From: Pseudovirgaria hyperparasitica
Lineage: Eukaryota
Reading direction: 5' to 3' (one strand)
Length of the DNA: 64,000 nucleotides
NCBI GenBank assembly: GCA_010093815.1
Contig: ML996584.1
Both the position numbers and the translations under genes were made by a program. The notes under the pieces are model-generated. The model searched no databases. It saw nothing but the letters and a program-made list of their open reading frames with translations, and was not told the DNA's origin. Below, piece after piece: positions 18,247 through 64,000 of this stretch; the stretch's first letter is position 1, and every line of letters starts with the position of its first letter.

Positions 18247-18595
18247 TTTGGGTTACGGGGGGGATTAGGGGGAGGGATAGGGGAAGGGGGTGAGGGGAGA
18301 GGGGAAAGGGGAGGGGATTAGGGATTAGGGAAGAGGGGGGTGAAAAGGGGGAACGAGAAGGGGGAATGACAAGGAGGAAAAGGGGGAAAGAGAGAATGCA
18401 TGTTGTGTACGTCTGTATATGTGTCTGAGTGTATGTATGGTATACGCGGACGCGAGGAATGAATACTCCTCCGACCCATCCACATCCACTCCCAGTATAT
18501 ACCCCTGGCACGTGAAAAGAACCGCTCTACTCCCATGAATCTAATAACAAGAATCCATGATATCTTGCCCTTCTAGGACCAAGAATGCTAGTATT

Positions 18596-18632
18596 AAGAA
18601 TATCAAGAATATCAAGAATATCAAGAATATCA
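18596..18632. repeat. (AAGAATATC)n minisatellite at the left edge of the gap
   Basis: Four 9-bp units run into the N block. Confidence 0.85.
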
Positions 18633-19432
18633 NNNNNNNNNNNNNNNNNNNNNNNNNNNNNNNNNNNNNNNNNNNNNNNNNNNNNNNNNNNNNNNNNNNN
18701 NNNNNNNNNNNNNNNNNNNNNNNNNNNNNNNNNNNNNNNNNNNNNNNNNNNNNNNNNNNNNNNNNNNNNNNNNNNNNNNNNNNNNNNNNNNNNNNNNNNN
18801 NNNNNNNNNNNNNNNNNNNNNNNNNNNNNNNNNNNNNNNNNNNNNNNNNNNNNNNNNNNNNNNNNNNNNNNNNNNNNNNNNNNNNNNNNNNNNNNNNNNN
18901 NNNNNNNNNNNNNNNNNNNNNNNNNNNNNNNNNNNNNNNNNNNNNNNNNNNNNNNNNNNNNNNNNNNNNNNNNNNNNNNNNNNNNNNNNNNNNNNNNNNN
19001 NNNNNNNNNNNNNNNNNNNNNNNNNNNNNNNNNNNNNNNNNNNNNNNNNNNNNNNNNNNNNNNNNNNNNNNNNNNNNNNNNNNNNNNNNNNNNNNNNNNN
19101 NNNNNNNNNNNNNNNNNNNNNNNNNNNNNNNNNNNNNNNNNNNNNNNNNNNNNNNNNNNNNNNNNNNNNNNNNNNNNNNNNNNNNNNNNNNNNNNNNNNN
19201 NNNNNNNNNNNNNNNNNNNNNNNNNNNNNNNNNNNNNNNNNNNNNNNNNNNNNNNNNNNNNNNNNNNNNNNNNNNNNNNNNNNNNNNNNNNNNNNNNNNN
19301 NNNNNNNNNNNNNNNNNNNNNNNNNNNNNNNNNNNNNNNNNNNNNNNNNNNNNNNNNNNNNNNNNNNNNNNNNNNNNNNNNNNNNNNNNNNNNNNNNNNN
19401 NNNNNNNNNNNNNNNNNNNNNNNNNNNNNNNN
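18633..19432. other. Assembly gap (800 N)
   Basis: Run of n characters. Confidence 1.
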
Positions 19433-19526
19433 ACATACATACATACATACATACATACATACATACATACATACATACATACATACATACATACATACAT
19501 ACATACATACATACATACATACATAC
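19433..19526. repeat. (ACAT)n microsatellite at the right edge of the gap
   Basis: About 23 perfect tetranucleotide units. Confidence 0.95.
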
Positions 19527-20047
19527 ACACCCATACCACCACCATCCAATTAGACTCACAAGTAAGTCCCACCTTGACGGCGCACAACCTACCCCTTGAA
19601 TCCTGAAACATCATGGACATATCACATGCACAATCTCACGTCACACACTCCTCCTCTCACTCACGACACAAGTCACCCACCGTTTTCTCACGACACACTC
19701 ACATCCCAAGAATCAAACATCATGCAAAGGCATATAATCATTAACAATTACCGCCATCCACACAGCCGCAATGCATAAACTGTATACATGAAAGAACGGA
19801 CGTGTCGGCTATACCTCAACCCATACCCATGCCTGTGCACACGCACACACACCCACACTGGGACCGGTATGCCACGCGCCGCCAACATCATCATCGTCGT
19901 CAAGGAGGAGTAAACCAGACCCGCGTCATTAAACAAAGTCATCATAACCCTCGTCCGTTCGAGAAGAGATCCCATGTACCGTTTCCCCTTCGTCATGCCA
20001 GCATGCCTATGCACCACCATTCACAGTTCTACCCGTGAAAAGGGTAC

Positions 20048-42900: not shown

Positions 42901-45900
42901 CCGTCTAGGTTAAGGGTGTCGCGGCAGTGGGGCACTGCTCGCGCTCGCATTCTGATTGTAACTCTGGGCCCCACAGTTATATACATCGTGCCTCTACGAA
43001 CGTCTGTATTGCATAATACGACAATTCGTATGCCAAGTCCATCTGGGACATGCCCAGTCTGTCAAGACTCAAGAGACACCTCCGCTACGCCGCTGTGTCA
43101 ATATTGCAAAATACTACGATACCATGACCCTTCGATGGAAGTCTGATCCACGATAGTGGGAACGATGTGTCTCGAGTTCGTGACTGAACTACAACCTGTT
43201 CATGTAATTAATAGCGGCTACGAAACCAGGACCAGGGTTACGGCAATTGGGCATCTGTACATGCTGCCCTCGATCGACAACAACGAGCATAGGATCATGG
43301 ACGTGGACCTGGTTAACTCCATTAGTCCTCGCCATGCTTATGCCTGTCGGACGACGCAAAATGGCATGGAGGATTGTTTATTCATTCTGACAATTAGACA
43401 ATTGCCACTCGGGCTTCTCCGCATATGAACGATGGCCTTCTCCAACTTTTGATCCGTTTGTCCATAGTTACATGGGAAAGCTTGGCGCCCGATGCACGTC
43501 TATGCCACCAACACGCGTTTTTATATATAATTAATATTTTACGGCATCGTCGACAAATACTTATATACCTATTAAAATATCTATTATATATTAGTATTAT
43601 ATGATATTAGCTATATATTAGTATTTTTTTAACTATTTTACGCTATCTATTATACCTCCTAAGTAGCGTAAAGGTATTTAATTCGGATAGAATAACTCAA
43701 TAGAACCTCTACTACTACCTCCTAGGCTACGGCTACGTATATCTATATTAAAGGCGCTCTAGTATAGTATAGATAAGGTATTAAGGGCTACGAAGATAGT
43801 AGTAAGGCGTAAAAATATACCGCTAGCGCCCTCTAACGTACTCTTATCGAGCGATCCTCTAGCCTTACTAGGCGATATATCTAATAATACTAATAACTCT
43901 ACTTTAGTTCATAGAGATATAGTTAAGGAGGAGGAGAAGAAGGACCTATAGAATAATAACGCGGCTCTTAATAAGATAATATAGTCTATCTATATAAATT
44001 AGTAACTTAGAGTAGATAGTTTTAGAAAGATTATTAAGGCTATATCGCTAAAGATAGAAGCCCGGTATAAGTTTAAGAAGGAGTTATATAAGAAGGAGAT
44101 TTAGTAGTTAATTAATAAGGCTCTCGGTACTAATAACTAGCTATTTAAGACTTAAGGCTTTACTATAAAGCTCGGAATATCTAGTCGTGCTAGGAAATAG
44201 TTAATACTTCTAGACTAGAGTCTAGATAACTAGAATAAGCTTCTTACCTTCCTTAATAAGATCTATAGTCTAGTAAGAAAGGATCTACTAGAGGCTATAT
44301 TTCTTACCTTTAAGGATACTATTATCTATAAGTCTTATTAGCTACTAGAACGTAAGAAGGCTATAGTATCTAATCCGAAGTCTCCTACGCTATTACTACT
44401 TATTAGTATAGTTTCTACTAGTCTAGTATTATCGCCTATAGATCCGAATCTTAAGGGACGCTTAAAATAGCTATTTAAATTATAGGAGAAGCGAAGATAG
44501 CGAGGCCGTAACTAAGGAGTTATTATTAATAATATTTAGAGTAAGCTCTAGTATAGTAAGGCGATATATATAAACTACTAAGGTTAGTACTATAAGATTA
44601 TATTACCTAATAGAATACTCTACTATAAGGTGGATAAGACTATCTTAGAGCTATAGGCTAATAATATTATTAATAGTATTTAAGGCGTAACTAAGGATAA
44701 GCTATTAATAGACTTATTCTATAAGATTATCGCTCGACCGTGCCTAAGGAAGTCTTAAACTAGTAGTAGAACTAGTATCTCGTTAACCGCCGTTAACGGA
44801 AGTACTACTTCTATACTTAAGCGCCTTAAAATAAAGAGATTACGACGTAAGGAGGCTAAGTTAGATTATAAGAAGCGGAATACGAGGCTTTAAGATAAGT
44901 AGATAAGATAGATAATAATTAAGCGTAAGGAGACGGTGGCGAGACGTCGTTAAGATAATAAAGATAAGCTTACGTATACTTAACTACTTTATTAGATGGA
45001 ATTATAGTATTACGGGTTTAATTCTATAATACCTATATAGATATCTACGTTTCCTTAACCTTAACCTTAACCTCGCCCTCTATCTACTTATAGTTTAAAT
45101 TATTCGCTAACTCGTAAGACTCGTTATAAAATACCCCCTTAGACACGAGTTATAGAAACCTTTAGTAGTCTAGTATAACTAGGGCGTTACTAGGCGGATA
45201 TAGTACTATTAGCTCTTAAATAGCGTAAGAAGATAGAGACTCACGATAAGACGAGGGCTAGGATACACGAATTAAGACTATATATAGATAATAACTACTA
45301 TACTTACTACTATATTAAGGAGATAACTCGGCCTAGAACTACTTATTATAAAGCCGCGAAGATAGTAGGTATTCTACTTAGTATTCTACTAGATACACGT
45401 CTATACCTTCGTAAGTATAAGGAGTAACTTAAGGTAAGCGAGGCGGCGTCCTCGCTCTAGGCGTTTACTATAACTAGTATAACTAGTATTTAGATAGGGA
45501 TGGTATAGTATTTCTTAGAGTATATTTAGGAGTATATATTTATATATTAAGGCTATATGTATAAGAATAGGGTTATTGGATAGTAGTATAGTTAGATAGA
45601 ATAATAGGGTGTATTCTATTATAGAACGAATTACTACCAAACCCTTTTAGTAGGAATCCGAGAGTATATATATAAAGGGACGCTAATCTATCTAGTACGT
45701 AACTATTTACCGCCCTTCACGTTACCTTCTAACCCTATTAGCTAAGGTATATATAGGTCGGGTTCTAACTAAGGCTAAGTCCTAATAATTATCCCTTCCC
45801 TCTAGGAAGCTACCCTTAGCGACCTAGATTATTATCTATCTCTATATCCCTATCCTAAGTCTCGTAAGACCTTAGTTATTCTCTACGCTTTATCTTAGAT

Positions 45901-48900
45901 ACTTACTAATATTTGCTAATCTAAGATTTATATAAGCGTTTTCCTAATAAACTAGATTTTATCTATCTTAACTTCTTATATAGGTAAGATTATCTAATTA
46001 GGCCTAGCGTATCACGTAATATAATTAGATAAGCCCGGGTACTACCTATATTAAAATCTTTTCTTAGAAATATTCCTTTCTTTAAAAAACTTCTTAACTC
46101 TTTATAGAGTTTTTTAGATTATTAGATATATTACCTAATCCTTATAGATATAGATTTATATAGATTTACTATAATTTAGTACGATTTACATAATTTACTA
46201 ATTTTCGTACCATCCTTAGCTAGTAATAATATAATTCGTAATAATCCGTATAAATTAATAATAATTATAATATAGTTTCTCGAAATCTTAACGCTCTAAA
46301 GTAATTAGTATAGAAATAGGCGCCTTTAAATAATCCCTATCTTATATACGTTACCGATATATCGAAAGCTATTAATCTACTCTAACCTAGGCCGGGCTCT
46401 AATAATCTAGCTATATATTATTATAGTTATCGCTTTCTATCGTATATTACTTATAGTAGTACTAAATCTATAATATACGGTACTTATATAACTAAGAAGC
46501 GTTATTATTTATAGGTATTTAAGTAAGTTCGAAGAACTTTATATAGATTTACTTATATTAGTATAGATTACTACTAGGCCTCTAGTAACCCCTACTAATA
46601 AGGAGCGTAGTACTACCGATTATAATGCCTTAGAGAAGGCTTTCTACGAGCTATATATCTAAGGTAAGGGTTACGTCTAGAAGTATAATTCTAATAAGAT
46701 CCGTAAGGATTTATCGGAATCTACTATAGCTATTATTACCGCGATTACTAGGTAATATCGTTTTTCTTAAATTATTATAGATTCTTACTAATATATATTA
46801 ATCTCTATAATAGTACTAAAATCTCTACCACTTTGGACTTCTTTCTATATACCGGCGATATTAAAATTCCTAGAAAAGGTTCTAGTAAAAAGGCTAAGGT
46901 TCCTTCCTTACGCGTGCTAAAGAGCTATAAAATTAGGGAAGATAGCTCTAATCTAGAAGTTTCTATACTAAAGTTATATAGTTCTATACTAATTATTAAA
47001 TCTTTTCGCTAATTTATATAATTCTTAGCGTGCCCGCGCCGGTCTATCTCTCTCTATCCTAGGTTCTATCGCTCCGTAGGTTTCTATAGAGGAGTTTATA
47101 GCTATAAGGTGCGCTATATAGAATTTATAGTGTCGGAACGAAAGGCTAGAGACTTATATTATAAAGCTCTATACTATACTAAATAAGAACTAGCGGAAGG
47201 AATTAGATATAACCATCGCGGTAATTAGTACTTCTACTCCTACTCTAACTTAATCGGTTTAGATCTATACTAATTAGTACTAATATGTCTCTTTTATCTA
47301 GCGTTTTTGGTTTTTTAGTTTTAATTTTAAAGCGATCTTACTTCTTCTAGATAGATTAGTACGAGTTTATATAGATCTATATAGATCTTTATATTTTCTT
47401 TTAGCTTTCTTAATTTTATCTTTCTTTAATAATAACTTCTTTAATCTCTTTAGTAATCTATACCGATCTATACTAATCGGCACCGATTTTCGATGTCTAT
47501 TTCTCTTAGTGAATTATTTTTCTAAGTCTCTTTTTTAGTTAAATTTTTTAAAGTTCTAAGTTCGAACTTTCTAAGGAAGTTCCTTAATTCCTTAGAATAT
47601 TTTAAAGATCTATATCTCTTTTACCTTCTTCCTTTTAGGCGGCCGTTCTTAGCGCCGAACTATACTAAAAAACGTTAAATTACCGTACTTTAGTATAATT
47701 CTCTACAATTCCACGGCTTCCTTTACTAATCGCTACTTATATACTAATATCGCTACTTTGCTAATATTTATTATAGGTTCCTAAGTATCTTCGTTAGAAT
47801 TATATTCTTTCTAACGAATTTTATATAGCCACGTACTATCTTTAGCGCGTTACTAGCTAAGTATCTACTTAACTTCGTAGATATCTATACCTTCTTACGT
47901 AACTACTTTATGTAGTATCTATTCGGAATAATCCGGTAATAATAAGATATAAAATGGCTCGAGAAGCGTAATATAGAATATATTATATATCTTTAACGTA
48001 GGAGGGAGTTATAACTCGTACACCTAGTTATTAATTACACAAGTAATCTTATATAGACCTATTATTATATAGTTAAGCTTCTTCTTTAGCCTAATACTAC
48101 GAATATTCTTACTATTTAGTAAAACTTTATCCCTAATATTAAAGATTATAGGTTTTCTACCCTTATTATAGTGCGATTTACTATAATTCGTAGTATCTTA
48201 TAGTAACTTTATAACACTTCTTTACGTTTAGAATAGTTCTATAGTAATTTCTATTACTTTAACGTTAGGTTATTCTACTTTAAACTAAGTCCCTAAGAAC
48301 TACGTATTATGGTTCCGACCGAAGTTTACTTTAAACGGACTTACGTAGGTTAATATATATCGGCTGTTATTATACGCGAATTCCGCGATATAGACTAACC
48401 TTACCTAGTTATTCTACTTAAAGTTATAATATACGCGTAAATACGCCTCGACTATCTAATTCTACTACTCTATCTACCTATCTATTTATAGGTAGAACGT
48501 AGTACTAAGTTTCCGCTTAATTCCTAGCGTATAGTAGAAATCCTTCTAAAATTTAGATGTTATCTACGGACCTCTATCCGAAACTATACCGTTTAGTATA
48601 CTATAGAGCCGGACTACGTCACGGAGTAGTATATCTATAAGATCTAGTACTTAGATCGTCTTCCTTATAGAGATATAGTATAATATCTTTATAAATCTAT
48701 CTAGAACTACGAGTAAACTATTATAAATATACCTAGAATACTTACTTAGGGGTAGATCTATAATAAAATCTATTAATAATTCCTTCTATGCCTCCTTTAG
48801 TATAGGTAATAGCCTTAATTCACTATATGGTAAGTATCTATATACTTTTATATACTAGTAAACGTTATACGTTTTTACGTAGTCTTTTATATATTTATAA

Positions 48901-49281
48901 AGACCTAACTAGTCGTACATCCTTCGGATTAAATTAACCGTTCTTATAATACTAAAGTACCCTACTAACGTGTAATCATGCTATTCCCTTAAAATATTAA
49001 TTTATAAGCCGCCTTCCGGCACGTAGAGTCGGCCTTAGAAGTAGATCGCGTCCAATTATCATTCCTACCTTAATAACTACAGCGGATCTATAGCGCTTCC
49101 TTTTATACTTATAACTTTCTTTACTAATATATCGGAATTCTAGGTAGATTTAATTAAGTCTTTAAGGTTTTTCTTAGTTTCTTAGACGTTTATTTAGATT
49201 ACTTAATACCCGCTCTAATTCCCGCGGAGAATCGCCGAAAGTGTCCTAGCTTCTAGCATTCTATTAGATAACTAGTCTTAT

Positions 49282-49483
49282 TATTATAGACTTTGGCTTT
49301 GCCTTGTCTCTAGCATTACATAACGGAGCCGGGACGGATAGAGACTAGTATAGGGGTATCACGTGACCTCGCTTAAGACTATACTTAAAGCTATAACCAT
49401 ACGGCTTATCCCTATTCTCTCTAAGTTAAATTATAATATATCTTAGTTACCATTATAGTAACACCTTGGTTATATCTATTATA
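49282..49483 (+). repeat. 5' LTR of inner Gypsy element
   Basis: 202-bp direct repeat of 56831-57032 with 9 mismatches, all transitions. Termini TA...TA (RIPed TG...CA). Confidence 0.95.
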
Positions 49484-52400
49484 TTAATTTAACTTTAATT
49501 ATCTCTTCCTATACGTGGCCTTATAGCATAAGATAGTCTTAACCCGTAAGACTCTAATCCAATGTAGTAACTCTCTAACTCCTTCCTTAGCTTTTAGGAC
49601 GAGATACGGTCTATCCACGAGTCTATTATGGCCGTCTAAGCGGTAAGCGAGTCTCGGATATCTAATATCGAATATAGCGTCTATACGGCTCTATAACGTA
49701 TCGACGCCCGCCTCCTTACGGTCGAGTTATATAGCCGTACTCCCGCCACCTTAACTTATAGCGACTCGTCCCTACCCTAGCCCGACTCCTCCCCGGTAGC
49801 GCCCTAACGCCTATATAGGCCTGAACCAGCCTTTCCTACGCGCGCTCCCGCCTTACTACTTCCTACGCCGTATATTATACTCGACCGGGCTCCTAAGAGG
49901 AAGCCCCTCTCCCTTAGCGACCCGTATAACGGGTCTAAGGCCCTCTTCTATATATAGTCCGTTATAATATGGTATAAGATTACCCGGGACGCTAACTTTA
50001 TTAGCATCTATAGAGACTAAATAGCCCTTATTTAGGCTAATCTAGCGCCTAAGGTATAGAGGGGGGTTAGCGCTATGTATTCCACTAGGGGGCTAAACGG
50101 CGACTAGGACCCGCACGCGTTCTTAGACTACCTTAAATTCTAGTTCGGAGACACACATACTAAAGAGCGGGCCCTCTAGCGGTTAAATATAATTATATAA
50201 AAGGTAAAGAAGCCGTTCACGGAGTACTTCGTGCGGTTCTATACCGCCCTCTAGAAGGCTAGGGGAATATACTAGGCCGACGACTAGAAGCTTATACGGC
50301 TCCGGGACGGCCTTAACTAGGAGACCCGGGCGGTAGCCCTAAACCGGGGCCTCCCGGACTAGTACGAGGCCGCCGTAGGCCGCCTTTAGAATATTAGCAT
50401 GGATATAGAGTTATTCCGGCTCCGTACTAGGTAAAGCGCCGCACCTTAAAATAGGCCTAGTAAGGATAAGGACGGCGACACGACGATATCGGCGGTCGCT
50501 ATTAAGGCCGTTAAGATAAAGAGTAAGGAGCGAGCCGCGTCCCTAATAGTAAAGGGTAGAGATAGGGTTAAGAAGAAAGAGACTCCTTCGTGGATCCCGA
50601 AGGACTTATTCTAGAAGCGCCGTACGGCGGGCGTATATACCCGGTACGGCTAGGCTAGCTACTAACACCGGGGCTATCTAAACGCTATTAACATACGAGC
50701 GCTTAAGGTTACGGCCCTAGCTTAGGATAATACTAATTCCGACTCCAAGGCGGGGGAAGTATAGTCCTCTACTAAAGCCCGGGTTGGGGGACGTTACTAT
50801 ATTCGGTAAGGAACGAAGCTATAGGCGACCCGGATAACGGCTCCGACCTAGAGGATAGCGCGCCCGCTCGGGTTATAGACGGACCCCCACCCGTTATATT
50901 ACTATTCCTCTAGGATAGGAAGTATATAGACGCCTTAGTAGATATAGGGTGCGAGTATTTCGCGGTAGTTAGCCCGGCCCTTACGGCGGACGTGGCTAAG
51001 TCGCGTATCTTGGTTCTACGTTATCGAGTGGCTCTCGCCGCTAATAGAGCGTTAGGACCGGAGATTACGGAAGTCGTTACTATCTAGTATAATATCGCGG
51101 GGTGGCGATAACGCCTTACCGCCTATATAGTACCCGGGCTAGACCGGGACCTTATCCTTAGGAGCCCGTGGCTCTACTAGGCCGGCGCCGTTATCGATAT
51201 ACACGTGGGCGAAATCACGCTTTACCGCGCCCACGGCCTTATAGCCCGGGATATTAATACCTATAGGCGCCTAATAAGCATCCGGGTCCTTACCGAGAAG
51301 GGCCGTATTCCTAGGGGTCTAGAGACGGCTTACTACCGTGGGCGAGTAGTCGCTACTAGTATCCGCGACGTTACCCGCCTCCTATAACTTATACTCCCCT
51401 AGTTACCTCCGGTATCTAACTAGAACGCGACCGAGCTTACGGAGGATAGGCGCCCGCTCCCGTTAACGCTATACGCCTACCGCGATCTCTTTAATAAGGA
51501 AAAGGCGTCGGCGCTACCTCCCCATAGAGGGAATACCGACCACTATATCTATATTAAGTCTATACCGGTAGAAACCCCTATGAACCTCCCCTAGGGACCA
51601 CTCTACGCTATATCTCGGGAATAACTCGTGGAGCTCCGTCGCTAGCTTACGGATCTTATAGATAAGGGATGGATACGGGCTAGCTTCTTAGCGGCTAGGG
51701 CGCTAGTACTCCTTATCCCTAAGCCGGGAGAGAAGTAGCGGCTATATATCGACTATAGGGCCCTTAATAGTATTACCGAATAGGACCGATACCCGCTACT
51801 ACTTATACGCGAGACCCTATACACTATTAGTAATACGTCGTGGTTTAGTAAGGTGGACATCCGGGCGGCATTTTATAAACTACGGGTCGCTACCGGGGAC
51901 GAATATAAGACGGCCTTCTGCACCCGGTTCGGCCTCTTTAAATGGATAGTTCTCCCTTTCGGTCTCTCCGGCGCCCCTACCTCCTTCTAGCGCTATATTA
52001 ACGGGGTACTAAGCGGGGTCCTCGGGGTTACCTATATAGCGTATCTTGATAATATCCTTATATACACCCCGGGCACGTTAGAAGACCACTAGGCCGCTAT
52101 AAAAACTATCCTATCTCTCCTTATAAAGGCGGACCTTTACTACGACCTTACTAAATACCGTTTCGCTACTAAGGAGGTCCGGTACCTAGGTTATATTATT
52201 ACCGCTAGGGAGTTAATCCGCCCTAACCTAGAGAAGATCGCCGCTATCCGGGACTAGGAGCCCCCGACTACGGTCCAGGGCGTCTAGCGGTTTATTAGGT
52301 TCGTAAACTTCTACCGTAACTTCCTCCCTAACTTCTCTACTATAGTAGCCCTACTCCACGCCCTTACTAAGGCCGGGACGGCCTTCTACTAGGGCCCGGC

Positions 52401-54739
52401 CGAGGACCGCGCGTTTAATACGCTAAAGAACGCTTTTATTACCGGGCTAATCCTCTAGTCCTAGAACGAGATACGCGATATAATAGTCGAGGCGGATTAC
52501 TCCGGACACGCGGCGGGTGGATACCTATCCTAAAAGGTTTAGGGTATTTAGCACCCGGTAGCCTACTATTCCGCGGCCCTTACGGCCGCTTAGCGGAACT
52601 ATACGATCTACGATAAGGAGCTCCTTATAGTAGTTTAGTATCTCTAGGCGTAGGAACCTAAGCTCTAAAGCATCTACTACCCCTTCACGGTCTATATAGA
52701 CTATAAAAACCTCGAGCACTTTACTAAGTCTTACCTTCTTATCCTACGGTAGTAACGATAGTCCGACTAGCTTATACTATTTAACTATAATCTTATATAC
52801 CGGCCGGGATCCTAGGCGGCCTACCCGGATACCCTAAGCCGCCGTAACTAGAACTTATCTAAAAAGTCCCTTCTAAGGGGACGGCTCATGACCCCACGGG
52901 CCATTAGAATAGTACTAGTAAGTACCCGCTCTAGGGAGTCCTATCTCCCCTAGGGACGAAGTATCTTTACTAACCCCCACCTCTAGGAGCTCTAGAACTA
53001 GGCCATTCGGTTAGTCCTAGTATACCGGGCCCGCCACGGGGCTATAGTAGGTAGGGCACGCCTCTTTCTACCGGAGGCGCTTACTACTAAATAGGTCATA
53101 GACTACGCCATATTAGTATACGGAATACTAATATGGCGGAGGGTCATTTAGGTGCCCGAGTGGGAACCCCTTACTATAACTATTATCTAGAAGTCCTATA
53201 CCTCCCCCCTCGCGGGCTATCCCGGTAAGAATAAGACTTATATAGCTATTCGGCGGGAGTACTACTAGAAGCGGATATAGGCCGATATCTAGTAGTTTAT
53301 ACGAAACTATAACTACTATAGGGCCCATGTAAACCGACGTAAGGCCCCTAGCCTTCTCTAGCCTCTTCCGACACCGGACCGGTTCTAGTCCTAAATTTCT
53401 ATAGATTTTATAACTAACCTCCCCTAATCGGACCCGTCCCGGCCCTAATATCTTCTTATTATTACGGACCGGCTCTTAAAGTTTATTTAGCTAGAGGCGA
53501 TAACCTCTATAGTAGTCGAAGACTATACTACGCGGTTCTATAACACGTGATAGCGTTTCCGGGGGTTCCCCTAGTCGATAATCACGGACCGGAGCTTAGA
53601 CTAGCTTAGGTAGTTCTAGATAACCCTCTACTCTATAATAGGTGTGCGCTAGGACCTCTCTACGGCCTACTACCTATAGATAGATAGCGGTACTAAGCGT
53701 ACGAACTAGGAGATGTAGGCCGTACTACGCGTCATAGTGACTTTTAAGTAAACCAACTAGCCGGAATATCTCCTAGTATATTAGCTCGCCCTTAATAACC
53801 GCACCTTATTAGTAACCGGTATAGCGCTAAACTTACTCCTAAACGGATACCACGTTAAACTATTACCACGGTAGCTACTCCCTAACGCCTCTACGACCTC
53901 AGCGAAAGGTCGGGCTATGAATTTCCTTAAACACCTTTAGGACGGCACTACCTTAGCTTAAGTAGCTATTACCTAGGCTAAGTAGCGCTCCTAAGACTCG
54001 GTAAACCGGTCACGACGCCCGGCCGAGCGTTTCGAGGTCGGCGATATAGTATAGTTCTCTCTCTAGAACGTAAAGACTAACCGCCTAAGCCGGAAGCTCG
54101 ACTAGCTATAGATAAAATACCGGGTTATAGCCTAACCTACCCCCTTAATAGTAACCCTCGACCTCCCTAGAGACCTTTATAAAACGGTCTATATAAGTCT
54201 TATCGAGCGCGCCGTAGAGGACCCTCTACCTAGCTAAGAGTAGCTCGATACCCGCCCGGGCCTAGTACTCGAGCTTAACGAAGTAGACGAGGACGTCACG
54301 GAGTATAAGGTTAAGGACATCCTACGTACGAAAAATGCACGGGGGTGGAATAAGCGATAGGTGCTCGTAAAGTAGAAAGGGTAGTTATAACTAATATAGG
54401 TCCTACTCGAGGACGTAGAAGATACTAAGGTACTAGACCGGTTCGAGTCTAGATATAGCGACGCTCGATTATATAACGGCCTACGACTCTAACGCATCCC
54501 TAAGTAGTAATATTACTCTACTATTATAGGCCTATAGTAGCCCCGATAACCTAATATAAGAGTAGAGATTTTAGAAAAGAAAGAAATAAACGCCAAACGC
54601 TAGTACCTAGTATAACCTAATAATAAACCGACACCCGCCTTAAGACATGAAAAGGTTATTTACCTAGCCCTACCCTAGGTTTACACGGCGCTGGGGCCGG
54701 TGCCGTCCTTATCCGTAAATCCTAATATAAGGTTAGTTA

Positions 54740-56250
54740 TCTAGTCCTCCCCTAGGCCGTCTCCTAATAACGGCGGCGGCTATTAATCTAGGTGGGTGGC
54801 GAGGGCGAGTCGTACTCGTCCGTAGGAGGGTTATAGCGGGGGCGGGCCGGCGACCGATAGCGGCGCGACGCTTAATAATCCTTACGGGAATAGTACCGAT
54901 GGCCACCCGAGTAACGGCGACGGTCGTGCGACCGGTCCCGATAGTTATATAACCGGTCACGACGGCGGGGAGACCGATTACGGCGGGTAGGGGACCGGCT
55001 ACGACGCTCGTAGGACCGGGAGCGGTCACGGTAGCGAGGAGGGGTCCGGGGCTAACGATAAGGCGGTGAGGACTTATAAGGAGGGGCGGCGATAGGGAGC
55101 CGGGGGGGCCTAATAGGGCGATAGCGAGAGCTCCGAGTCGGCGACTCCCTATAGCCTACGGGCCGGGGTCGGCGTAAGCGGCTACTACCTAATAAGGGCT
55201 CCTTATCCTCTATAACTACCTAAGTAATAAGACGGCGAGATGGTGGCTCCGCTAGGCGGGCCAACCCGGACGCGACTTACTATATAGTGCCCTACGTCAC
55301 GCGTTAGAATAGGTATTTAGGCTTATAAAGCTTATATACCTATAAGGTGCCGACACTAGTGCATAGCTCATCTATCTAGGCCTCGTTATAGGATACGTAC
55401 TAATTCATCTAGTAAATCACGCTGCTAATCTAGCTACGGTTACTACTACCGCGATACGGCGGCTTAAACGATGTTATAGCGCCACGATAAGGTATTACGG
55501 GAGCCTAACTAATGATACTAGCGTTACGTCGCGTGACGTAGGTAATCTCTAAGTTAGACTTATAGTCCTTATATAGGTGGTAGAACTTAGAGTTTATATG
55601 CGGCCACTTACCGGACGAAGGCTTTATCGGGTCTAGGCCGCGACTACCATAATCCGTTATATAGCTAAAGTTATTATTAACCGACTCGTGCATAAACTTT
55701 TTAAGACGACTCTACGCCTTACGCAAGGCCGGGTATATAGCGAGCTCCTTAGTATTCTATAAGTAGGTCCCCTTCGACGTATAGTACTTTATATAGTTAG
55801 TACCGCGGCTAGGCTTATAGCTACGCTCTAAGATTAGTAGGCGCCGCCACGGCGTAGAGACGGCACATACCTAAGCACCCTAGTTTTCTCTAGGGCCTTT
55901 ATATATATGCGACATGCGAAGTACACGGACTTAGTATACTCGTCTTCTAACGAGTTACCCTCTATAATATATAGCCCTATACGGCAAATAGGCTTAGCCT
56001 ATCGGGGTGCGGTAGGAGGAATAGTCTATCTAGTTAGTATAAGGAACGGTATAGGGATAGGACCCACTCACGGTACGATCGGCTGGTTCCTAGCGCCTAG
56101 GCGCGCGACGATCGTTAGGGTCTTAACCTCTAGCACCTATAGCTACCGCCGAGACGGCGCCGGTTTCTATAATAGGACTATTTAGGCCTAGAGCGCTTAT
56201 AATAATGGTATAGAAGCTGCGAGGTAGTATACGAGTTTACTAATATCATA
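54740..56250 (-). pseudogene. RIP-damaged antisense cargo gene in the inner retrotransposon (Zn2Cys6-like motif + RS-rich tail)
   Basis: Two canonical introns (56071-56026 GTGAGT..CTAAC..TAG; 55870-55821 GTATGT..CTAAT..TAG). The spliced frame runs through ORF 55693-55505 into an RSRS/RDR-rich segment. Ends are approximate. Confidence 0.7.
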
Positions 56251-56830
56251 GTAGCTACTACGTAGTATTAAGATAGTAGGCGTAAGGGTAGTTAAGGAAG
56301 AAGAAAGTCGCTAGGCGTGGGACCTATATACTCGCGTTAGGGAAAATCGTGTGGGCCGGGGTAGAGCCGGTCCTAAAATGGACGATAATAATAATAAACG
56401 CGGGTCGTGCGCAAGCTACCCCACTACTACTATATAACCCCTAGCCCGGTAAGTAGCCGGTCCTAAAACGGATAATAATAAAATAGGACGCGCGGTTCGT
56501 GCGTAGGCTACCCTACCTTCATATAACCCGACGTAGCACGCCGTAATACGAGGAGTCTACCTCCGCCACGTAACCGCCACGATATAACTATAGGATTCTA
56601 CCATCTTACAATTACATGACCTACGACGCCATGATATAAGGAACCAACCTCCGCCACGTAACTACTAGGACGCTACTATAAAAAGCTACTACCTTACTAG
56701 AAGGAATATATAGCCCTACGGTTATTATATAGTACGATATAAAGACCGTAAACCTAAGACCTAACCGAGCCGGTTATTATTATATAAAACACTAAGCCGG
56801 TCCCTAGGACAATCCTAGAGAATAAGGGTA

Positions 56831-57032
56831 TATTATAGACTTCGGCTTTACCTTATCTCTAGTATTATATAACGGAGCCGGGACGGATAGAGACTAGTAT
56901 AGGGGTATCACGTGACCTCGCTTAAGACTATACTTAAAGCTATAACCATACGGCTTATCCCTATTCTCTCTAAGTTAAATTATAATATATCTTGGTTACC
57001 ATTGTAGTAACACCTTGGTTATATCCATTACA
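56831..57032 (+). repeat. 3' LTR of inner Gypsy element
   Basis: Direct repeat of 49282-49483. Ends in ...ATTACA followed by the TSD CTTAT. Confidence 0.95.
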
Positions 57033-58484
57033 CTTATAGTATCTAAAGTATAGTATAGTCTAACTTGCACTAACTATCTACGTTATTCTATAACGATTTC
57101 TTATAATCTTTACGCCGCGATAGAGGATTAGCTTTATTCTCTCTTCTAGCTTTATATAAGATTTTAAAGTTAAATATTAATATCCACTTAGCCTAACGTA
57201 CTTATCGGTAATTAAGGACCTTAGTTAATATAAAGTAACATAGATTCGCGTAATCTAATAATAATTCGATCTAATGTACGGAGCCTTCTAAATAATATCG
57301 CTATTACTTAAAACTCTTAATAATTATAAGTAGTTCCTAGTCATGCGTATTATAACGCGTCTCTATATCCGCCATTTTATAGGAAAAGAAAGCGACCGGG
57401 TACTATTATACCTTATCTTTCGCATCTTTATACGGTTAACTAATAATTCTAGTAATTATAAATTCTAACGCGTTAGTTTTAACCCGAATATACTTCTCGG
57501 GATTAAAATACCTAAGAATTAGCGTAGTTATAAAGTAATTCTTTAACGATTAGAACGCATCTTACGCTTCCAGCGTTAACTATATCTCGACCGACTTAGC
57601 TTTATGCTATGCTCGCCTATCTATAGGGATTTTACCGCCATTCTCTATAAGTTTATTAAGCGGCGCCGTAATTCATAAGAAGTCTATAATAAATTTATAA
57701 TAATAGTTCACGAAACCTATGAATATTCTAATTTAACGTATAGTAGTAGGTTCTAGCCATTCTATAATGGTCTTTATACGCTCCGGCTCTATTTTTAGGC
57801 CGCTATATATTATAATAAAGCCGAGAAACCCAACTTCTTATTAGTAAAACTCGCATTTAGATAATTTTACGTAGAGTTTATACTACCTTAGATAATTTAG
57901 TACCGATTTCACGTGTTCTTTATAATTCTATATACTATCAAAGTAAATTAGTATATTATTAAGATAAACTACGTAAATCACGTTAAGTAATTCTATGAGT
58001 ATAGTATTAATATATCCTTAAAACGCTCCTAGCGTATTTATTAGCCCGAATAGTATAATAGTATACTTAAAATAACTATATCTAGTCCGAAATGCGGTTT
58101 TCTACTTATCTCCGTGACGAATTTAAAGCCGGTAATATATATCTTGTAAATCTAGCTTCGTAAAGTACTTTACCTTTATTAATTAGTCTAAAGATTTACG
58201 AACTAGCGGTAATAGATAATAATTCTTCTTAGTTACTATATTTAGTACCCGATAGTTAATATATAGATATAAACTTCTATCTTTCTTCTTTACGAAGAGA
58301 ATAGATACGCTAGCTAATAACATACTATAATATATCTAGCCTCTTTCGAGGTATTCTTTAATATATTTATAAAGAACTTTAAGTTCTAGTCTTAAAAGTA
58401 GATAGAGTAGGCTATAAGAGACGTCTACTCCCTCTTCGAGCTCGATCTTTAGCTTATATACATTAGGAAAGATACGGCGCTCCC

Positions 58485-59030
58485 AATACTTCTAGGTCTC
58501 CCGGTACTTCTAAAGTTATCCTAAATGGGTCCCGGTACTTCTAGAGTTATCCCAATCCTCCTAGAGTCGTCCCGGTACTTCTAGAGTTATTCTAATTCTC
58601 CTAGAGTTGTCCTAGTCCTCCCGGAGTCGTCCTAGTTCTCCTAGAGCCGTCCCGGTTCTTTTAGAATTATTCTATCGAACGTTAAGAAAACGTTTAATCC
58701 CGTTATATGCCGGCATATATAGTAACGTCCTACTAAATGCCGGTATAGTATAGTAATACTACTTTATATTACGACTATACTTCGAGTATCTAGGAATATT
58801 CTATAATATACCGGCGGCGTATAGTATGTTAGAACATGATCCCGTTATATACCGGCATATATAGTAACGTTCTACTATATGCCGGCATATAATAGTAATA
58901 CTACTTTATACTACGACTATACTTTAAGTATCTAGGAATATCCTATAATATACCGGCGCATGTCGGAATATTCTATTATATGCCGGTATATATAGTAACG
59001 TTCTACTATATAACGGTATAGAATAAATAT
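58485..59030. repeat. Internal tandem repeats in outer element (~21-bp and ~140-bp units)
   Basis: CCCGGTACTTCTAGAGTTATC-like units at 58485-58670, and a longer unit starting CCCGTTATAT at 58699 and 58841. Confidence 0.8.
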
Positions 59031-62029
59031 CTTATTTCTCTTCACGTATAGATATATATAGATATATAATTACGAGTAAACAGCGGTTCGTATTTATACT
59101 ACTATACTATCTAGTCTCTTAGAAGCTAATTAACTAACTACCTTACTTACTTCTATACTACTATATCTCTATAGAATTAAAGCGTACGCCTATTACTAGC
59201 ATGTTAGGTATAGCTATCTCTACCGTAGCTATATCTCCTTTTCCTAGGTCTAAGGCTTATATTCTCGTGCTTTCGATTACCTTATCTAACGCGGTAAGTC
59301 TAGCCTCGACCTCTAAATAGTCTAAAATTAAAGTATACGCATATACTATAGGCCGATATTATCCATGGCGATAATATCTTATGCTTGCCTACGGCTACGT
59401 CTCCTTACGTAAGTATTAGTCTACTAATACTATAAAACTAGCGACTATTAGGTCTTATCCTTCATAGACCTACGAAGCTAATACTAGTAGAATACACGGA
59501 GAATCCGACTTAGTCGACCTAAATAATCTATATACCTTATTTAATTCGGACATACTTAGGCCGGCTAGTAAATATACTAATATTTTCGCTTATGTATATG
59601 GACGTAGTACCTATATATATTAGTAAATTACGTTACTAGTAGGTAGTGTAAACACTTACTAAGTATAGGAATATTAAGCTTACCGGTACGGCACATGTAA
59701 GTACGATTTTCTCTAGGCGGTCGACGGATGTTCGTCGCGCGCGTCTAGTACTTTCATTATAAACATTATTATTAATAAAGTTATGAATCTAGTTTACCTT
59801 CGAAGCGTGTTTATTAGCTAGTAATACTATCTTCTTTCGTATAGCCTTATCTAGCTATAGGAGCGCTTCGCGTACGGGATTAGCGATTATCTTACTCGGT
59901 ATACTATTATTACTATCCCTCCGACGCGTAAGCGTGATATTAATTTACTCGTCTTCTATCTTTTTATTAGTAAGGTATATAAGTGGTATACACGTAGTAG
60001 CTAGCCTAGCCTAATAGTAGTATGCGTTAAGCCTAGACCCGGTACCCCCTTTCGATTTACTCTAGGCGGTAGATTATACCTACGAGTCCCGCGGCGTTCT
60101 ATTAGGCTATAGATTATTAAACTATCTACCTCTATTCTCGTATAACTATATAATTATCTTCTCTAGTTCTATAGCCGGGACGGATATAAACTCTACTACT
60201 AGCTTTAATATCGTGGATAGATATGCCTCTCTATTAAACCATTTAGTTAGTAGTCCCCGTTATAGGACGAATAGTAAATACTAATCGGCTACCATACGTA
60301 GTATGCGCTTACCTTCTATAGTTTCTAATGCCCTACGGACTATTACGGCCATCGTGTCCGCCGGCTTACCTTTTATTAAACTAAGGAGTTTATTTAACCA
60401 CGTTATAATAATCTTCCTTATAGTTTTATTCTATAGGCTCTTAAATACCCTTTTAGTAGTATTATCATCGATGTAGTCGGGTAACTTATCTAGAGTACCT
60501 GCCTCGATAGCCGCTAGAATATCTACTAGACTATTCGAGAGGGGCGTTATACTAACCTATATACTAAATATAAGGGTATTATATATTATATATTTATACT
60601 ATTTTATATCGGGGTTCTTTGCGGAATAGAACTCGTCTACTATTAATATACCGAGGAATACTACTTCGCGAGTTTAAGTGTTTTTAGTACTAAATTATTT
60701 CGCTCTCTTTACTCTTATAACTACGCGTCCCTTAAAAGATTTAAGATATTAGGGTTCTATACTCTAGACGGTACTATAGATTATATAGTTCTTCGTGTAT
60801 CACGACGGAAATTCGGTAGTAGCGGTCCTATTAATAGGAATCGACTATACCCTAATAATACACTCCTTATCGGTCTCGAATTTAGTAGTATTATTAATAT
60901 CGACGCTGTATTCCCATTCGGGGTGTAGACATCTCTTAGCTAAGTATTATCGGTCTACATGTAAGAATTATCGGATACTAGGGGCGTTAGTAAGGGTTTT
61001 CGAGTACGCTAGCCGTACTATTATCTTTATTAGGTTCCGTTTATTAATTTAATCGGTGAATATACTATCCGTATCGTTATACATCTATTTAAAGCGCTAC
61101 GGCTAATACGCTATTAGAAGGGACCTTAGGTAGTATAGTATAAATGGTCCTTAAAGGCGGGGTATATAGATAAAATTATTGGTCTAGCTACACGGATATT
61201 TAATCGGATATAGAGATTATATCGGGCACTTCCTATCCATGCCTGAGTCTTAAGTCGGTTATAGATAATTTCCTAGATTAAGTTCTATATTATCGCGTAG
61301 AAAGTCCTAATAAAACACGAGGCGGATAAACGTTATAAGCACGATTATCTTCCCTAGCCCTAGGCTATCTACTAAGATCTAGTACTTCTACGGACCCGCC
61401 CGCTACTTAAATATAGTAACTACCGCGAGTAACTAGCCGGTCTATGGCCTATATAACCCACTTATACTAAAGGCTGGATATAGAGTGGGTGTGTGGCCGA
61501 ACTCCTTTATTAGGTCGTCTAGTATAAGCCTAAATATACTTATAGTAAGTAACCGTATCTCTTCCGTATAATAAGAGATAGCTTAGACTACTTTATCGGA
61601 GTTATTAACGGCGAATATTCTATAGGTACATTAGTATGGTAGTATATATTCCTACTTACTTCTTAGTATAACTTACGCTTCCTATAGTTTCGTACTAACA
61701 TCGTTATCTACTAGAATTAAGTCCTCTGTATCTAGCTTTACTTTATCTCCGTTAGAGTCGTCGTCTATAGAAAGAATTTTAAAGTTAAGGCCGTTCGCTA
61801 ATATACTATCCGATATATATCTACTATATAAATTATCTACTAACCCGAATAGTTCCTGGTTTTTACGTGTCTACCGGTCGATATCTAGTAGTATAATATA
61901 TTCTAGTTTTAGGCGTTTCGGAGAATCGACTAGGTTTACTATATTATCCGAGAGTGTCCTCTTTATTTCTAGTAGCCGTAGGTAAGTCTCGCTAGTATCT
62001 AGAGGCATAACGGTATTCGTGGGGGAATT

Positions 62030-62860
62030 GTCTATATTAGTAATTATAGGCGCACCTATCTTTAATACTACTCTAATATTAGTATCTAGAACCATATATA
62101 TATATATATGTCTAAGTATACTAGCTACGTCGTCTTCTATTTTAGTATCTTCTATATTCTCTTTCTCCGTATGTTCCGACGGTAACTATAACTATATCTC
62201 TATAGNNNNNNNNNNTCTAAGTATACTAGCTACGTCGTCTTCTATTTTAGTATCTTCTATATTCTCTTTCTCCGTATGTTCCGACGGTAACTATAACTAT
62301 ATCTCTATAGCTAGTGTGTTTGCGCGTAGATAAGCTTCGCTAGGCACGACGATATTTATAGATAGATTATCTATATCGGTAGTTATAGCCGTACCTATCT
62401 TCGATACTACTCTAATATTAGTATCTAGGACCATGTATATATATATATATNNNNNNNNNNTTATAGATAGATTATCTATATCGGTAGTTATAGCCGTACC
62501 TATCTTCGATACTACTCTAATATTAGTATCTAGGACCATGTATATATATATATATCTAAGTATACTAGCTGCGTCGTCTTCCATTTTAGTATCTTCCACG
62601 TTCTCTTTCTCCGTATATTCTAATAGTAACTATAACTATATCTCTATAGCTAGTATGTTTACACGTGGATAAGCTTCGCTAGGCACGACGATATTTATAG
62701 ATAGATTATCTATGTCGGTGGTTATAACCGCGCCTATATTCGATACTACTCTAATGTTAGTATCTAGAACCGTGTATATATATATGTGTCTAAGTATACT
62801 AGCTACGTCGTCTTCCATTTCAGTATCTTCTATATTATCTTTCTCCTTATATTCTAGCGG
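62030..62860. repeat. ~234-bp tandem repeat (78 codons) in the upstream/gag region of the outer element
   Basis: Units anchored at ~62032, ~62372/62477 and ~62711. The minus strand repeats EDDVASILRHIYIY.VLDTNIRVV. Two N10 gaps lie inside. Confidence 0.8.
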
Positions 62861-64000
62861 TAACTATGTCTACGTACCTATACCTATAGTATCTATATCT
62901 AGTTTAGCCTCTATTATATCTATGGTCGTAACCGTCGGTACTAACTTACTATTTATAGCCGCGATATGCTAATTGAATTCTCTAGTAACGGTTTCCTTAA
63001 CTATCCTATAGAGTATAGTAGTATCTATACTACTAGTTTTAAGCTCTATTACTACTTCTTTACTTACTATCTTAATAATAGTAGCCCTATATATATTATA
63101 ACTTATTTTAGATATTAGGTATGGGCCTCGGAGGTACTAGATGTAAGGTAGGAGGGCGCTAACGCTTAAGGCCTCCGCACGTTATATATACGTATTACGG
63201 TTAGCTATTCTATAGCTAGTAGTTAAACTAGGATAGTCGTAACTCTCGTTATGTCTATCTATTTCTATATACGACTTAGGCCATAGGTAGTAAGACGGCG
63301 TTAATAGCGATAAGATATAAAAACTAGATTTAGGCGGTAGAAGTTAAGTCGCCACGTTTAGTAATTATAATATAATTTCGATAAGTGCGGAGGAAGTAAA
63401 GTATATAAGTAAATGTTTAATTATTAGAGTGGATCTTATACGATTACAGTCGTAGTAATAATATAGCTAGTAGGACCGGGCGTATCCCGACATGAACTAG
63501 ATAGACGCCGGCTTATACTAGTATTGTAATATCTTAACTAAATATATATACTATAGTTATATAGCTAGTAGAATCGGGCATATACTAATATATAGTAGGT
63601 AGAAGCCGTCTTACGTCGGATCGTATCGCCTTAGCTAAGTACGCACGCTACTCTTACTACCTCTAGCATCCTTTTCATTATTCTATTAGTCTTTAAAAGC
63701 GATATCTATATCCTCTATATCTAAGGTACTTTTAAGGCTTTCGAAGTTACTATCTTTAGAGCTTATAGATTGGTCTCGCGACTTCCCGGGTACTAATAGT
63801 AGTATATATAGTATTACTAGAGGAAGGGTTAAGTCGTTTAGGTGATGCTATCTACTACCTATAATACTATCTCTATGGGTATCTCTACCGTTATAGGCGG
63901 TGGCTTTCTATTACTATTATTATACTAATTATAGCGAGTATAGTATTAGGGACAGAGGGGCGGATTTATTCGAGTGTAACCTATATATAGCCGTCTATAC

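Follow-up and report, generated by a model that had tools for sequence, protein, structure and literature searches.

Putative relic of an antisense protein-coding gene between pol and the 3' long terminal repeat of a RIP-degraded chromovirus of Pseudovirgaria hyperparasitica

Architecture of the element

The window analysed here is a stretch of 64,000 nucleotides from Pseudovirgaria hyperparasitica (GenBank assembly GCA_010093815.1, contig ML996584.1), in which the plus strand at 49281-57035 carries a single long terminal repeat (LTR) element, a Ty3/gypsy chromovirus degraded by repeat-induced point mutation (RIP). Between its pol gene and its 3' LTR this element holds a spacer of 2.3 kb, which is read here, with a probability of roughly 0.58, as what is left of an opposite-strand protein-coding gene, i.e., as belonging to the type of antisense additional open reading frames (ORFs). 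Bases 1-42000 of the window possess a GC content of ~50% as ordinary fungal DNA, and from 44000 to 64000 the RIP indices were found to be extreme (TA/AT 1.5-2.5; (CA+TG)/(AC+GT) 0.05-0.31).

The features of the element are collected in Table 1. It was found to have what defines a Ty3/gypsy chromovirus, namely LTRs, a gag gene with a zinc knuckle, the order reverse transcriptase (RT), RNase H and integrase and, as judged by alignment, a C-terminal chromodomain. The LTR pair is 95% identical, whereby a repeat search placed its members at 49282-49488 and 56831-57037 and alignment refined both. At the 3' LTR the summed contig depth rises ~5-fold, which fits additional LTR copies elsewhere in the genome, and the polypurine-tract-like sequence adjoining this LTR would serve as primer site. 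With X written at stop codons, the frame of position 49282 matched the Pfam families RVT_1 (2.8e-26), RT_RNaseH_2 (1.3e-15) and RT_RNaseH (2.9e-13), and in the pol frame Integrase_H2C2 was identified below threshold (3.6e-4, 21 bits versus a cut-off of 25.5); the remaining five frames of the element yielded zero Pfam families at E <= 0.01. Pol is 52-53% identical to the intact Ty3/gypsy polyproteins P0001-P0003, a chromodomain is present in many of its matches, and its C-terminus aligns to the chromodomain consensus of relatives carrying PF00385, being without a Pfam match in the window itself. The earliest stop past the chromodomain locates to 54490-54492, which leaves ~2.3 kb (54493-56829) up to the 3' LTR; the spacer described by the initial annotation of this stretch is thus real. 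Further copies of the element were not found inside the window, where the neighbouring elements are other gypsy families.

Table 1. Features of the element, with positions in the window
Feature	Position	Strand	Basis and remarks
5' LTR, ~206 bp	49281..49486	+	direct repeat; boundaries from alignment
gag, RIP-mutated	49802..50700	+	BLASTP to gag of the relative L008, E 1e-08; codon models choose the frame
gag zinc knuckle, now Y-x2-Y-x4-Y-x4-Y	50636-50677	+	VYTRYG*ASY*HRGY in the window versus CFRCGAAGHRIRDC in L008
pol: RT, RNase H, integrase, chromodomain-like end	50902..54492	+	RIP-mutated, 7.3% in-frame stops
pol-to-3' LTR region, 2.3 kb	54493..56829		family-wide; 30/30 bins covered in runs X1 and X2
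Arg/Pro/Ser/Tyr-rich low-complexity segment	54875..55219	- if minus frame	R 33, P 17, S 15, Y 12 of 115 codons; TAA 54874-54872
Candidate 120-nt intron, TAG|GTATAT ... CTTAG|G	55220..55339	-	post hoc; lies in the non-periodic gap
Best-supported relic coding segment, minus frame 0, 160 codons	55340..55820	-	GC at third codon positions, codon scores, shuffles, stops
Intron-like stretch, 50 nt, GTATGT...CTAAT...TAG (second proposed intron)	55821..55870	-
Open 42-codon stretch, minus frame 1, with the sole real Cys codon	55871..55998	-	codon score +3.1 to +3.7, best of six frames, three training sets
Intron-like stretch, 46 nt, GTGAGT...ACTAAC...TAG (first proposed intron)	56026..56071	-
Two copies of a ~90-nt unit	56365..56492		38-nt cores 56365-56402 and 56455-56492, 79% alike, 90 nt apart
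Polypurine-tract-like sequence AGAGAATAAGGG, adjoining the 3' LTR	56817..56828	+	read from the LTR alignment
3' LTR	56830..57035	+	direct repeat and alignment

Coding frames in saturated RIP

Comparison of pol in the window (51424-54540) with that of intact relatives documents the extent to which RIP altered the encoded protein. Gln dropped from 3.7-5.4% to 0.1%, Trp from 2.3-2.6% to 0.6%, Cys from ~1.3% to 0.1% and His from ~2.8% to 1.2%, Tyr increased from ~2.1% to 6.4%, and stop codons, none of which occur in the intact relatives, account for 7.6%. The depletion of Gln and Trp along with the gain of stops implies that practically all in-frame stops of pol are former Gln or Trp codons; from the shift in Cys, His and Tyr it follows that about one fifth of the Tyr residues are former Cys, about one quarter are former His and about one third have always been Tyr. 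The pol-frame stops comprise 68 TAG, 17 TAA and 1 TGA, and the share of TAG amounts to 82% in pol-frame windows versus 50% across all frames, as Gln is mostly encoded by CAG and Trp gives TAG. Stop counts alone failed to discriminate the coding frame from its mirror, since within 50500-54540 the pol frame contains 98 stops versus 80 in the codon-aligned antisense frame. ORF length hence misleads on the strand in saturated RIP, and it is the ratio of TAG to TAA (68:17 in pol) which indicates the correct strand.

The gag zinc knuckle serves as an internal control for reading RIPped proteins. In the related locus L008 it reads C-x2-C-x4-H-x4-C, and in the window (alignment by eye) its three Cys and its one His have all become Tyr. 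The premise of the initial annotation that RIP converts Cys to Tyr is therefore sound, with the qualification that such an origin applies to only ~0.2 of sites and that His is an equally good source.

Codon-position statistics were obtained at RIP-immune sites, defined as those with a left neighbour other than T and a right neighbour other than A, where a CpA-to-TpA change is impossible. In gag and pol together, GC at these sites is 0.71 at the first, 0.50 at the second and 0.81 at the third codon position, and the derived position model held in cross-validation (+22 for gag when trained on pol, +79 for pol when trained on gag). In addition, a 64-codon log-likelihood ratio (LLR) was computed, in which the coding frame of gag and pol is contrasted with their five remaining frames and for which three training sets were used. 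A first codon model, trained on pol, did not separate the frames in the region of interest, whereas the RIP-immune and the coding-versus-noncoding versions did. As the RIP-immune codon-position statistics and the TAG:TAA stop ratio recover the gag and pol frames in saturated RIP, they are usable to detect other hidden genes in RIPped DNA.

A coding-type signal in minus frame 0

In the spacer, base composition was found to be 3-periodic in two blocks sharing a common phase, i.e., 54750-55150 (chi2 up to 55.7, p 3e-10) and 55380-55920 (up to 28.3, p 8e-5), to be compared with chi2 values of 5.1-32.1 in 38 pol windows of equal size; periodicity was not detected in 55920-56830. With the minus frames numbered as in the initial annotation, frame 0 of 55352-55861 shows RIP-immune GC values of 0.53/0.53/0.81 with A at 0.02 in the third position (chi2 34.5, p 5e-6). 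For 55340-55820 the LLR of this frame amounts to +7.5, +4.1 and +12.3 and is the highest of the six frames under all three training sets; dinucleotide shuffles reach it with P 0.001 (0.0015 when the best of six frames is taken), and none of the 24 non-coding windows of 480 nt from the element does so. This segment is not of low complexity, its sole tandem repeat measuring 19 bp (55521-55539), and the clearly non-coding stretch 56251-56830 is devoid of such coding signals, both in GC at third positions (GC3) of RIP-immune sites and in codon LLR.

The stop codons point to the same frame. Within 55352-55861, minus frame 0 contains 7 stops in 170 codons, all of them TAG, and the unspliced minus frame from 55915 to 54875 contains 16 in 347 codons, 14 of them TAG, the background (1,356 windows) having a median of 30 per 350 codons and a 5th percentile of 17. 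The minus relic is thus not an open frame, as it carries 9-16 in-frame stops depending on the model, which is expected after RIP given the 7.3% of pol itself. An unspliced ORF starting from the ATG at 55915-55913 was considered and is disfavoured by two TAG codons within its first 15 codons and by negative scores of frame 0 upstream of ~55870.

Among the plus-strand frames, the codon-aligned one has a RIP-immune GC3 of 0.53, an LLR of -8.6 and few, mixed stops (14 per 350 codons, 7 of them TAG), which resembles the mirror frames of gag and pol. The plus frame sharing the third-position phase contains 17 stops in 169 codons, its own mirror 29 in 169, and its 64-codon LLR ranges from -8 to -14; it was set aside only because of these stop counts. 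Of the frames compared, minus frame 0 alone is consistent with every test.

Copies of the region within the family

Other copies of the element were assessed using contigs from two DNA sequencing runs (X1 and X2) of one sample carrying the same species label; these contigs are short, and each copy is accordingly seen in parts rather than end to end. The initial annotation had named absence of the region from other family members as a finding that would speak against its proposal. Aligned contig pieces (2,347 in X1 and 1,416 in X2) cover 30 of 30 bins of 53500-57037, so that the region is present in diverged copies. From two further runs of unspecified kind, X3 and X4, no contig aligned. Nearly all variable places in X1 are transitions (C>T 163, G>A 150, A>G 59, T>C 56, other 12). 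Apart from a dip at 54798-55033, the summed contig depth of the region is about that of the pol end, from which it follows that most copies carry it. The ~90-nt unit is variable, with some copies skipping 87 nt between 56399 and 56487.

Proposed introns and exon frames

Both minus-strand introns of the initial annotation exist as sequence exactly as they were described; placing the first of them within the coding region is not supported, and the second proved to be frame-compatible, which is modest support. Two strict intron patterns occur in 2.29 kb of minus strand, against a mean of 0.10 in dinucleotide shuffles (P 0.006). This excess over chance shrinks when other RIPped DNA is taken as reference, where 31,422 strand-bases contain 6 strict patterns, some within pol, giving an expectation of ~0.44 (P ~0.07).

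The frame assignment adds to this. The best minus frame is phase 0 (frame 1) from ~56220 to 55861 and phase 1 (frame 0) from 55890 to ~55290. The 50-nt stretch 55870-55821 sits between both, its length gives exactly the shift from phase 0 to phase 1, and within it no frame is clearly positive. As the frame switch locates to this stretch, the second intron is backed independently of the way in which it was originally found, and the odds that it is real are about even. Upstream of it, the open stretch 55871-55998 in frame 1 gives a shuffle P of 0.0085 for the frame named beforehand. The proposed exon 1, in contrast, scores -11.4 in the frame which the first splice requires and finds no support as coding sequence; the first intron-like stretch is therefore a 5'-untranslated region (UTR) intron at best and could be either that or a chance match.

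Downstream of the best-supported segment, a third intron, blurred by RIP, may lie at 55339-55220 in the non-periodic gap. When it is excised, the frame is maintained and 9 stops remain in 318 codons, exclusively TAG, the two TAA codons of the stretch falling inside the excised part; the codon scores across 55220-55339 are ambiguous.

The proposed zinc cluster

At the junction created by the second splice, the initial annotation had proposed a Zn2Cys6 cluster of which RIP had turned five of six Cys into Tyr. The junction peptide and its codons are correctly given, with TGT at 55914-55912 as the one Cys codon and TAT or TAC at the other five positions (55905, 55819, 55795, 55786/55783, 55765). 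That all five Tyr codons are TAT or TAC is true and carries no information, as it holds for any Tyr codon. Canonical Zn2Cys6 spacing is C-x2-C-x6-C-x5-12-C-x2-C-x6-8-C. Reading all five Tyr as Cys gives x2, x11, x7, x2 and x6, so that the second half of the canonical motif (x7, x2, x6, besides the initial x2) is resembled as in Gal4-type Zn_clus domains, but 11 residues instead of 6 separate the second from the third Cys. Six-frame reading of RIPped DNA (35,986 codons) gave 5 occurrences of a relaxed [C/Y] pattern of this kind and 0 of the canonical spacing, and the six-position pattern is hence within chance. Of the whole relic 10% is Tyr, which makes 7 C/Y in 37 residues a weak excess. Zn_clus (PF00172) was matched neither by the minus frames of the whole element (E <= 0.01) nor by pieces of them (E <= 10), whereby Tyr-for-Cys changes would weaken a true match, and the fungal transcription-factor middle domain was likewise not found by Pfam. 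In the majority of other copies position 55913 is A, so that even the sole Cys codon, TGT, reads TAT there; the 40 variable places listed out of 466 include none of the five Tyr codons. With one Cys, non-canonical spacing, no profile match and a base rate of ~20% per Tyr, the cluster is not supported, and a Zn2Cys6 protein is very unlikely.

The Arg/Ser-rich tail

As had been proposed, the minus frame runs on through an ORF at 55505-55711 into an Arg/Ser-rich ORF at 54872-55051, with 14 stops in 358 codons when the second intron is removed. The Arg/Ser segment shows the strongest periodicity of the element (chi2 55.7, p 3e-10) and one in-frame TAG, and the 59-residue ORF 55051-54875 within it contains 22 Arg and 8 Ser with 9 RS/SR and 7 RD/DR dipeptides. 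Read in the codon-aligned plus frame, the same segment would yield a protein nearly devoid of D, E, K, N, Q, H and Y; the plus frame of pol has 23 stops in 199 codons across 55220-55820. The tail was joined to the minus gene as it shares its phase with 55340-55820, is open in that frame and faces a plus pol frame rich in stops at 55220-55820. Whether it belongs there is close to a coin toss.

SR proteins are defined by an RNA recognition motif (RRM) plus an RS domain. In composition, the 59-residue ORF resembles the RS domains found in SR and SR-like proteins, but neither an RRM nor another domain was found by Pfam in the minus frames of the element or pieces thereof, and the segment fits either strand. 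At 54766-54952, three contig joints skip 185, 170 and 77 bases and the summed depth is 3- to 5-fold below that of the flanks, which suggests that in many copies the Arg/Ser segment varies in length or is lost.

Spacers of related elements

Relatives were drawn from metagenome contigs as a set of 79 loci around related pols. An LTR pair was found in 23 of the 57 loci examined, with pol-to-LTR spacers of 62-4,070 bp. Of the three longest spacers, two (L020, L028) turned out to be artefacts, representing the element's own gag in circularly assembled contigs. L001 and L008 have spacers of ~1.4 kb, the longest open frames of which encode 120 and 172 residues. Those downstream ORFs in the metagenome loci to which a name could be given belong to neighbouring transposons (a Mutator-like element (MULE), Plavaka, another RT), and the ORFs left over matched no Pfam family. 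In several more distant relatives, sense-strand ORFs of 209-727 residues without Pfam match follow pol immediately and precede the 3' LTR (L039:12987-14051, L050:13633-14457, L066:7107-7832, L070:7746-8423, L061:13000-13626 and L060:5379-7559); they could represent accessory ORFs in sense orientation that have yet to be characterised in fungal chromoviruses. A scan of viral contigs gave 2 loci, neither with a long spacer.

Interpretation and alternatives

Taken together, the coding statistics and the family-wide presence of the region argue for a relic of the following order. On the minus strand, 55998-55871 in frame 1 would be followed by the 50-nt intron 55870-55821 and by 55820-55340 in frame 0, and then, probably after a further intron or spacer, by the Arg/Ser/Pro/Tyr-rich tail 55219-54875, ending at the TAA 54874-54872. 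This would total ~320-360 codons with 9-14 TAG or TAA stops that RIP presumably made from Gln and Trp codons. The gene may have been transcribed from its own promoter within 55999-56829, and its intron would have been kept through retrotransposition by being antisense to the genomic RNA of the element. By way of a basic, disordered tail the protein could have been directed into the nucleus and onto nucleic acid, and there it might have regulated the RNA or the transcription of the element. The copy in the window is dead. Of the accessory gene of its own that the initial annotation ascribed to the element, an opposite-strand coding relic with a frame change at the second intron is thus favoured by codon statistics and is family-wide, whereas support is lacking for the three-exon Zn2Cys6 form and for the size of 450-480 residues. 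A more specific version, in which the family once possessed an intron-containing antisense gene for a body of ~200 Lys/Tyr/Ser-rich residues and an RS-like, nuclear, RNA-binding tail acting on the element RNA (export, splicing, packaging), is put forward tentatively and falls clearly short of even odds. If true, it would be the second antisense retrotransposon gene of fungi after brtn of Boty (see below) and the first with an intron protected by its orientation.

Several observations weigh against an antisense gene. The whole case is built on one RIP-mutated copy, and a start codon for the minus gene cannot be named. Periodicity is lacking in 55110-55379 (chi2 0.7). The codon score of 55340-55820 is positive yet lower than that of gag or pol at equal length, and in the position-only RIP-immune model the plus frame sharing the third-position phase scores higher (+6.6 versus +4.3). 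For 55871-55998 the best-of-six P is 0.136, and 28% of the non-coding windows of 129 nt reach 3.1. For the Arg/Ser tail the codon models favour no frame (P 0.23), and its periodicity fits the plus pol frame, with a Gly/Asp/Ser/Thr-rich reading, equally well. Single-sequence AlphaFold prediction gave a predicted local distance difference test (pLDDT) value of 33 for the minus-frame peptide, which is uninformative, versus 60, all helices, for the mirror plus frame; this higher value may be read as a bias to hydrophobic sequence. Searches for homologues were negative throughout: HMMER, run with the 360-residue read-through of 54740-55819 on a set of 1.84 billion representatives, had 0 matches at E <= 0.001, Pfam found no family in any frame of the region and one chance-level match at E <= 10 on pieces, and against the 79 related loci blastn found nothing, tblastx compositional matches only (E 0.012-0.097) and composition-corrected tblastn with six frames of the region nothing, a pol control piece of equal length matching 78 of the 79.

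These negative results would also be obtained if the spacer were a non-coding 3' region made of UTR, repeats and primer site, its signals arising from low complexity and chance and its intron motifs being by-products of RIP (TAG, CTAA and GTA strings). Strict intron patterns do occur in other RIPped DNA, pol included, the periodicity peaks in the low-complexity Arg/Ser segment, and the 1.4-kb spacers of L001 and L008 lack an ORF of at least 180 residues. Low complexity, though, does not apply to 55340-55820, where RIP-immune GC3 is pol-like (p 5e-6), where only 1 in 1000 shuffles and none of the 24 non-coding windows match the LLR, and where, across 55352-55861, all stops are TAG; the clearly non-coding 56251-56830 shows none of this. 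A non-coding spacer is hence considered unlikely. Rather improbable, too, is that the minus relic was a mere passenger, i.e., part of a host gene or a piece of a different mobile element, inserted in reverse into a progenitor copy and without a role in the life cycle. Such origins of ORFs by transduction and nested insertion are discussed in the accessible part of PMC7264820, and a passenger would account for the lack of a counterpart in the 79 related loci, whose spacers range from 62 bp up, and for the lack of an identifiable start codon or promoter. It is opposed by the contig depth, which across the greater part of the region resembles the depth at the pol end and places the region in most copies, by the lack of similarity to host or transposon protein families and by the intron-like stretch at the frame switch, as a retro-captured mRNA would lack an intron.

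A coding relic on the sense strand, i.e., a third ORF after pol in either the codon-aligned plus frame or the plus frame sharing the third-position phase, was weighed as well. The former has the fewest stops (19 in ~500 codons), a 114-codon open stretch (55841-56185) and the peptide with the higher pLDDT (60), the latter its +6.6 in the RIP-immune model, and several distant relatives carry Pfam-less sense ORFs right after pol. However, GC3 (0.53) and LLR (-8.6) of the aligned frame are not those of a coding frame, its stop profile is that of the gag and pol mirror frames, and its reading of the Arg/Ser segment almost lacks D, E, K, N, Q, H and Y; the other frame fails by its stops (17 in 169, mirror 29 in 169) and by its 64-codon LLR (-8 to -14), which makes a sense ORF quite improbable. 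Least credible is the gene in the complete form initially proposed, with 450-480 residues, three exons, a RIP-masked Zn2Cys6 at the exon 2/3 junction and a C-terminal RS domain. Codon statistics do favour its exon 2/3 frames and junction, RIP did make Tyr of three knuckle Cys in this very element, and the surviving Cys codon at 55914-55912 reads TAT in most other copies. Nevertheless, the 11 residues between the second and third Cys instead of 6, the absent Zn_clus match, the base rate of ~0.2 for Tyr from Cys with His becoming Tyr too, the 5 relaxed patterns in 35,986 RIPped codons, the weak excess of 7 C/Y in 37 residues of a relic with 10% Tyr and the -11.4 of exon 1 leave it hardly any chance.

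Relation to known antisense genes

The antisense accessory gene favoured here had been announced as comparable to the accessory genes of retroviruses and as escaping ORF finders, which overstates its novelty, as antisense ORFs in this position are already in print for Boty and for plants; the kind is probably a known one, to which the window adds a new case. Boty, a fungal Ty3/gypsy element with chromodomain, possesses the antisense gene brtn between pol and the 3' LTR (Zhao et al. 2011, Virology 417:248, as cited in the accessible text of PMC7264820, PMC8365987 and PMC4227169). By this description the layout is alike, a fungal chromodomain Ty3/gypsy element with an extra opposite-strand gene after pol and before the 3' LTR; the copy in the window differs in being RIP-dead and in that its gene was deduced from statistics rather than transcripts. 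Botrytis proteins were not among the 120 best pol matches, and the relic gave 0 matches in the HMMER search, no direct comparison with the brtn sequence having been made. A limited search of open-access text found no further fungal antisense case besides brtn.

In plants, antisense ORFs of the aORF-3R type are described for gene23 of maize Grande, rice RIRE2, Silene Retand (with a TRP28 domain) and Phaseolus PvRetro13, most of them without database similarity and some nuclear, with tandem repeats being common in the same region (PMC7264820, PMC11963269, as far as their text is accessible). Likeness to these, on the same partial sources, extends to a long pol-to-3' LTR region, an antisense ORF in most copies, tandem repeats, absence of protein similarity and a suspected nuclear or regulatory role. 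In the window, the minus coding-type signal (55998-55340) is placed between the pol end at 54492 and the 3' LTR at 56830, presence in most copies agrees with the 30 of 30 bins covered and with a depth like that of the pol end except at 54798-55033, and the ~90-nt duplication 56365-56492, variable among copies, parallels the tandem repeats. Differences are that Grande, RIRE2, Retand and PvRetro13 belong to non-chromovirus plant lineages and that neither TRP28 (PF04195) nor another Pfam family was matched in the window. An intron within such an ORF is not mentioned in the accessible text of PMC7264820 and PMC11963269, where the word 'intron' occurs 0 times.

Minus-strand genes near the 3' LTR that encode nuclear regulatory proteins are furthermore described for human T-cell leukaemia viruses (HTLV), namely HBZ of HTLV-1 and APH-2 of HTLV-2 (PMC11963269, accessible part). 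The likeness to the window is one of layout only, there being no relation in sequence or domains and the element not being infectious. The HBZ mRNA is spliced.

LTR retrotransposons rarely carry accessory genes; most of those that exist lack an explanation and readily escape notice, and in fungi RIP destroys them and masking hides them from annotation. If the antisense gene is real, a second, unrelated fungal case would speak for a repeated origin of antisense accessory genes in chromoviruses, especially with an intron and an RS-like tail, and it would offer a candidate regulator of retroelement RNA for relatives that still hold intact copies.

Neighbouring features of the window

The 3' LTR is abutted by a second RIPped Ty3/gypsy element in opposite orientation (57040-59400, minus strand), which is far richer in AT, matches RVT_1 (2.8e-18) as well as RNase H models and shares ~36% tblastx identity with the pol described here. 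It contains tandem units of ~20 nt (7 copies) and repeats of ~142 nt with ATATGCCGGCATAT-like palindromic cores (58488-58678 and 58697-59025). Phase 0 of the plus strand at 59451-61250 has one of the lowest stop densities of the RIPped tract (10-14 per 350 codons) and no Pfam family was found in it; this frame may be the mirror frame of gag of the neighbouring minus-strand element. A repeat array at 62017-62911, with units of 217-231 nt, spacings of 105 and 234 nt and 10-N gaps at 62206-62215 and 62451-62460, is probably a tandem repeat with assembly trouble. In the gene-rich part of the window, a run of 800 N at 18633-19432 explains the seemingly low GC content of 18001-20000.

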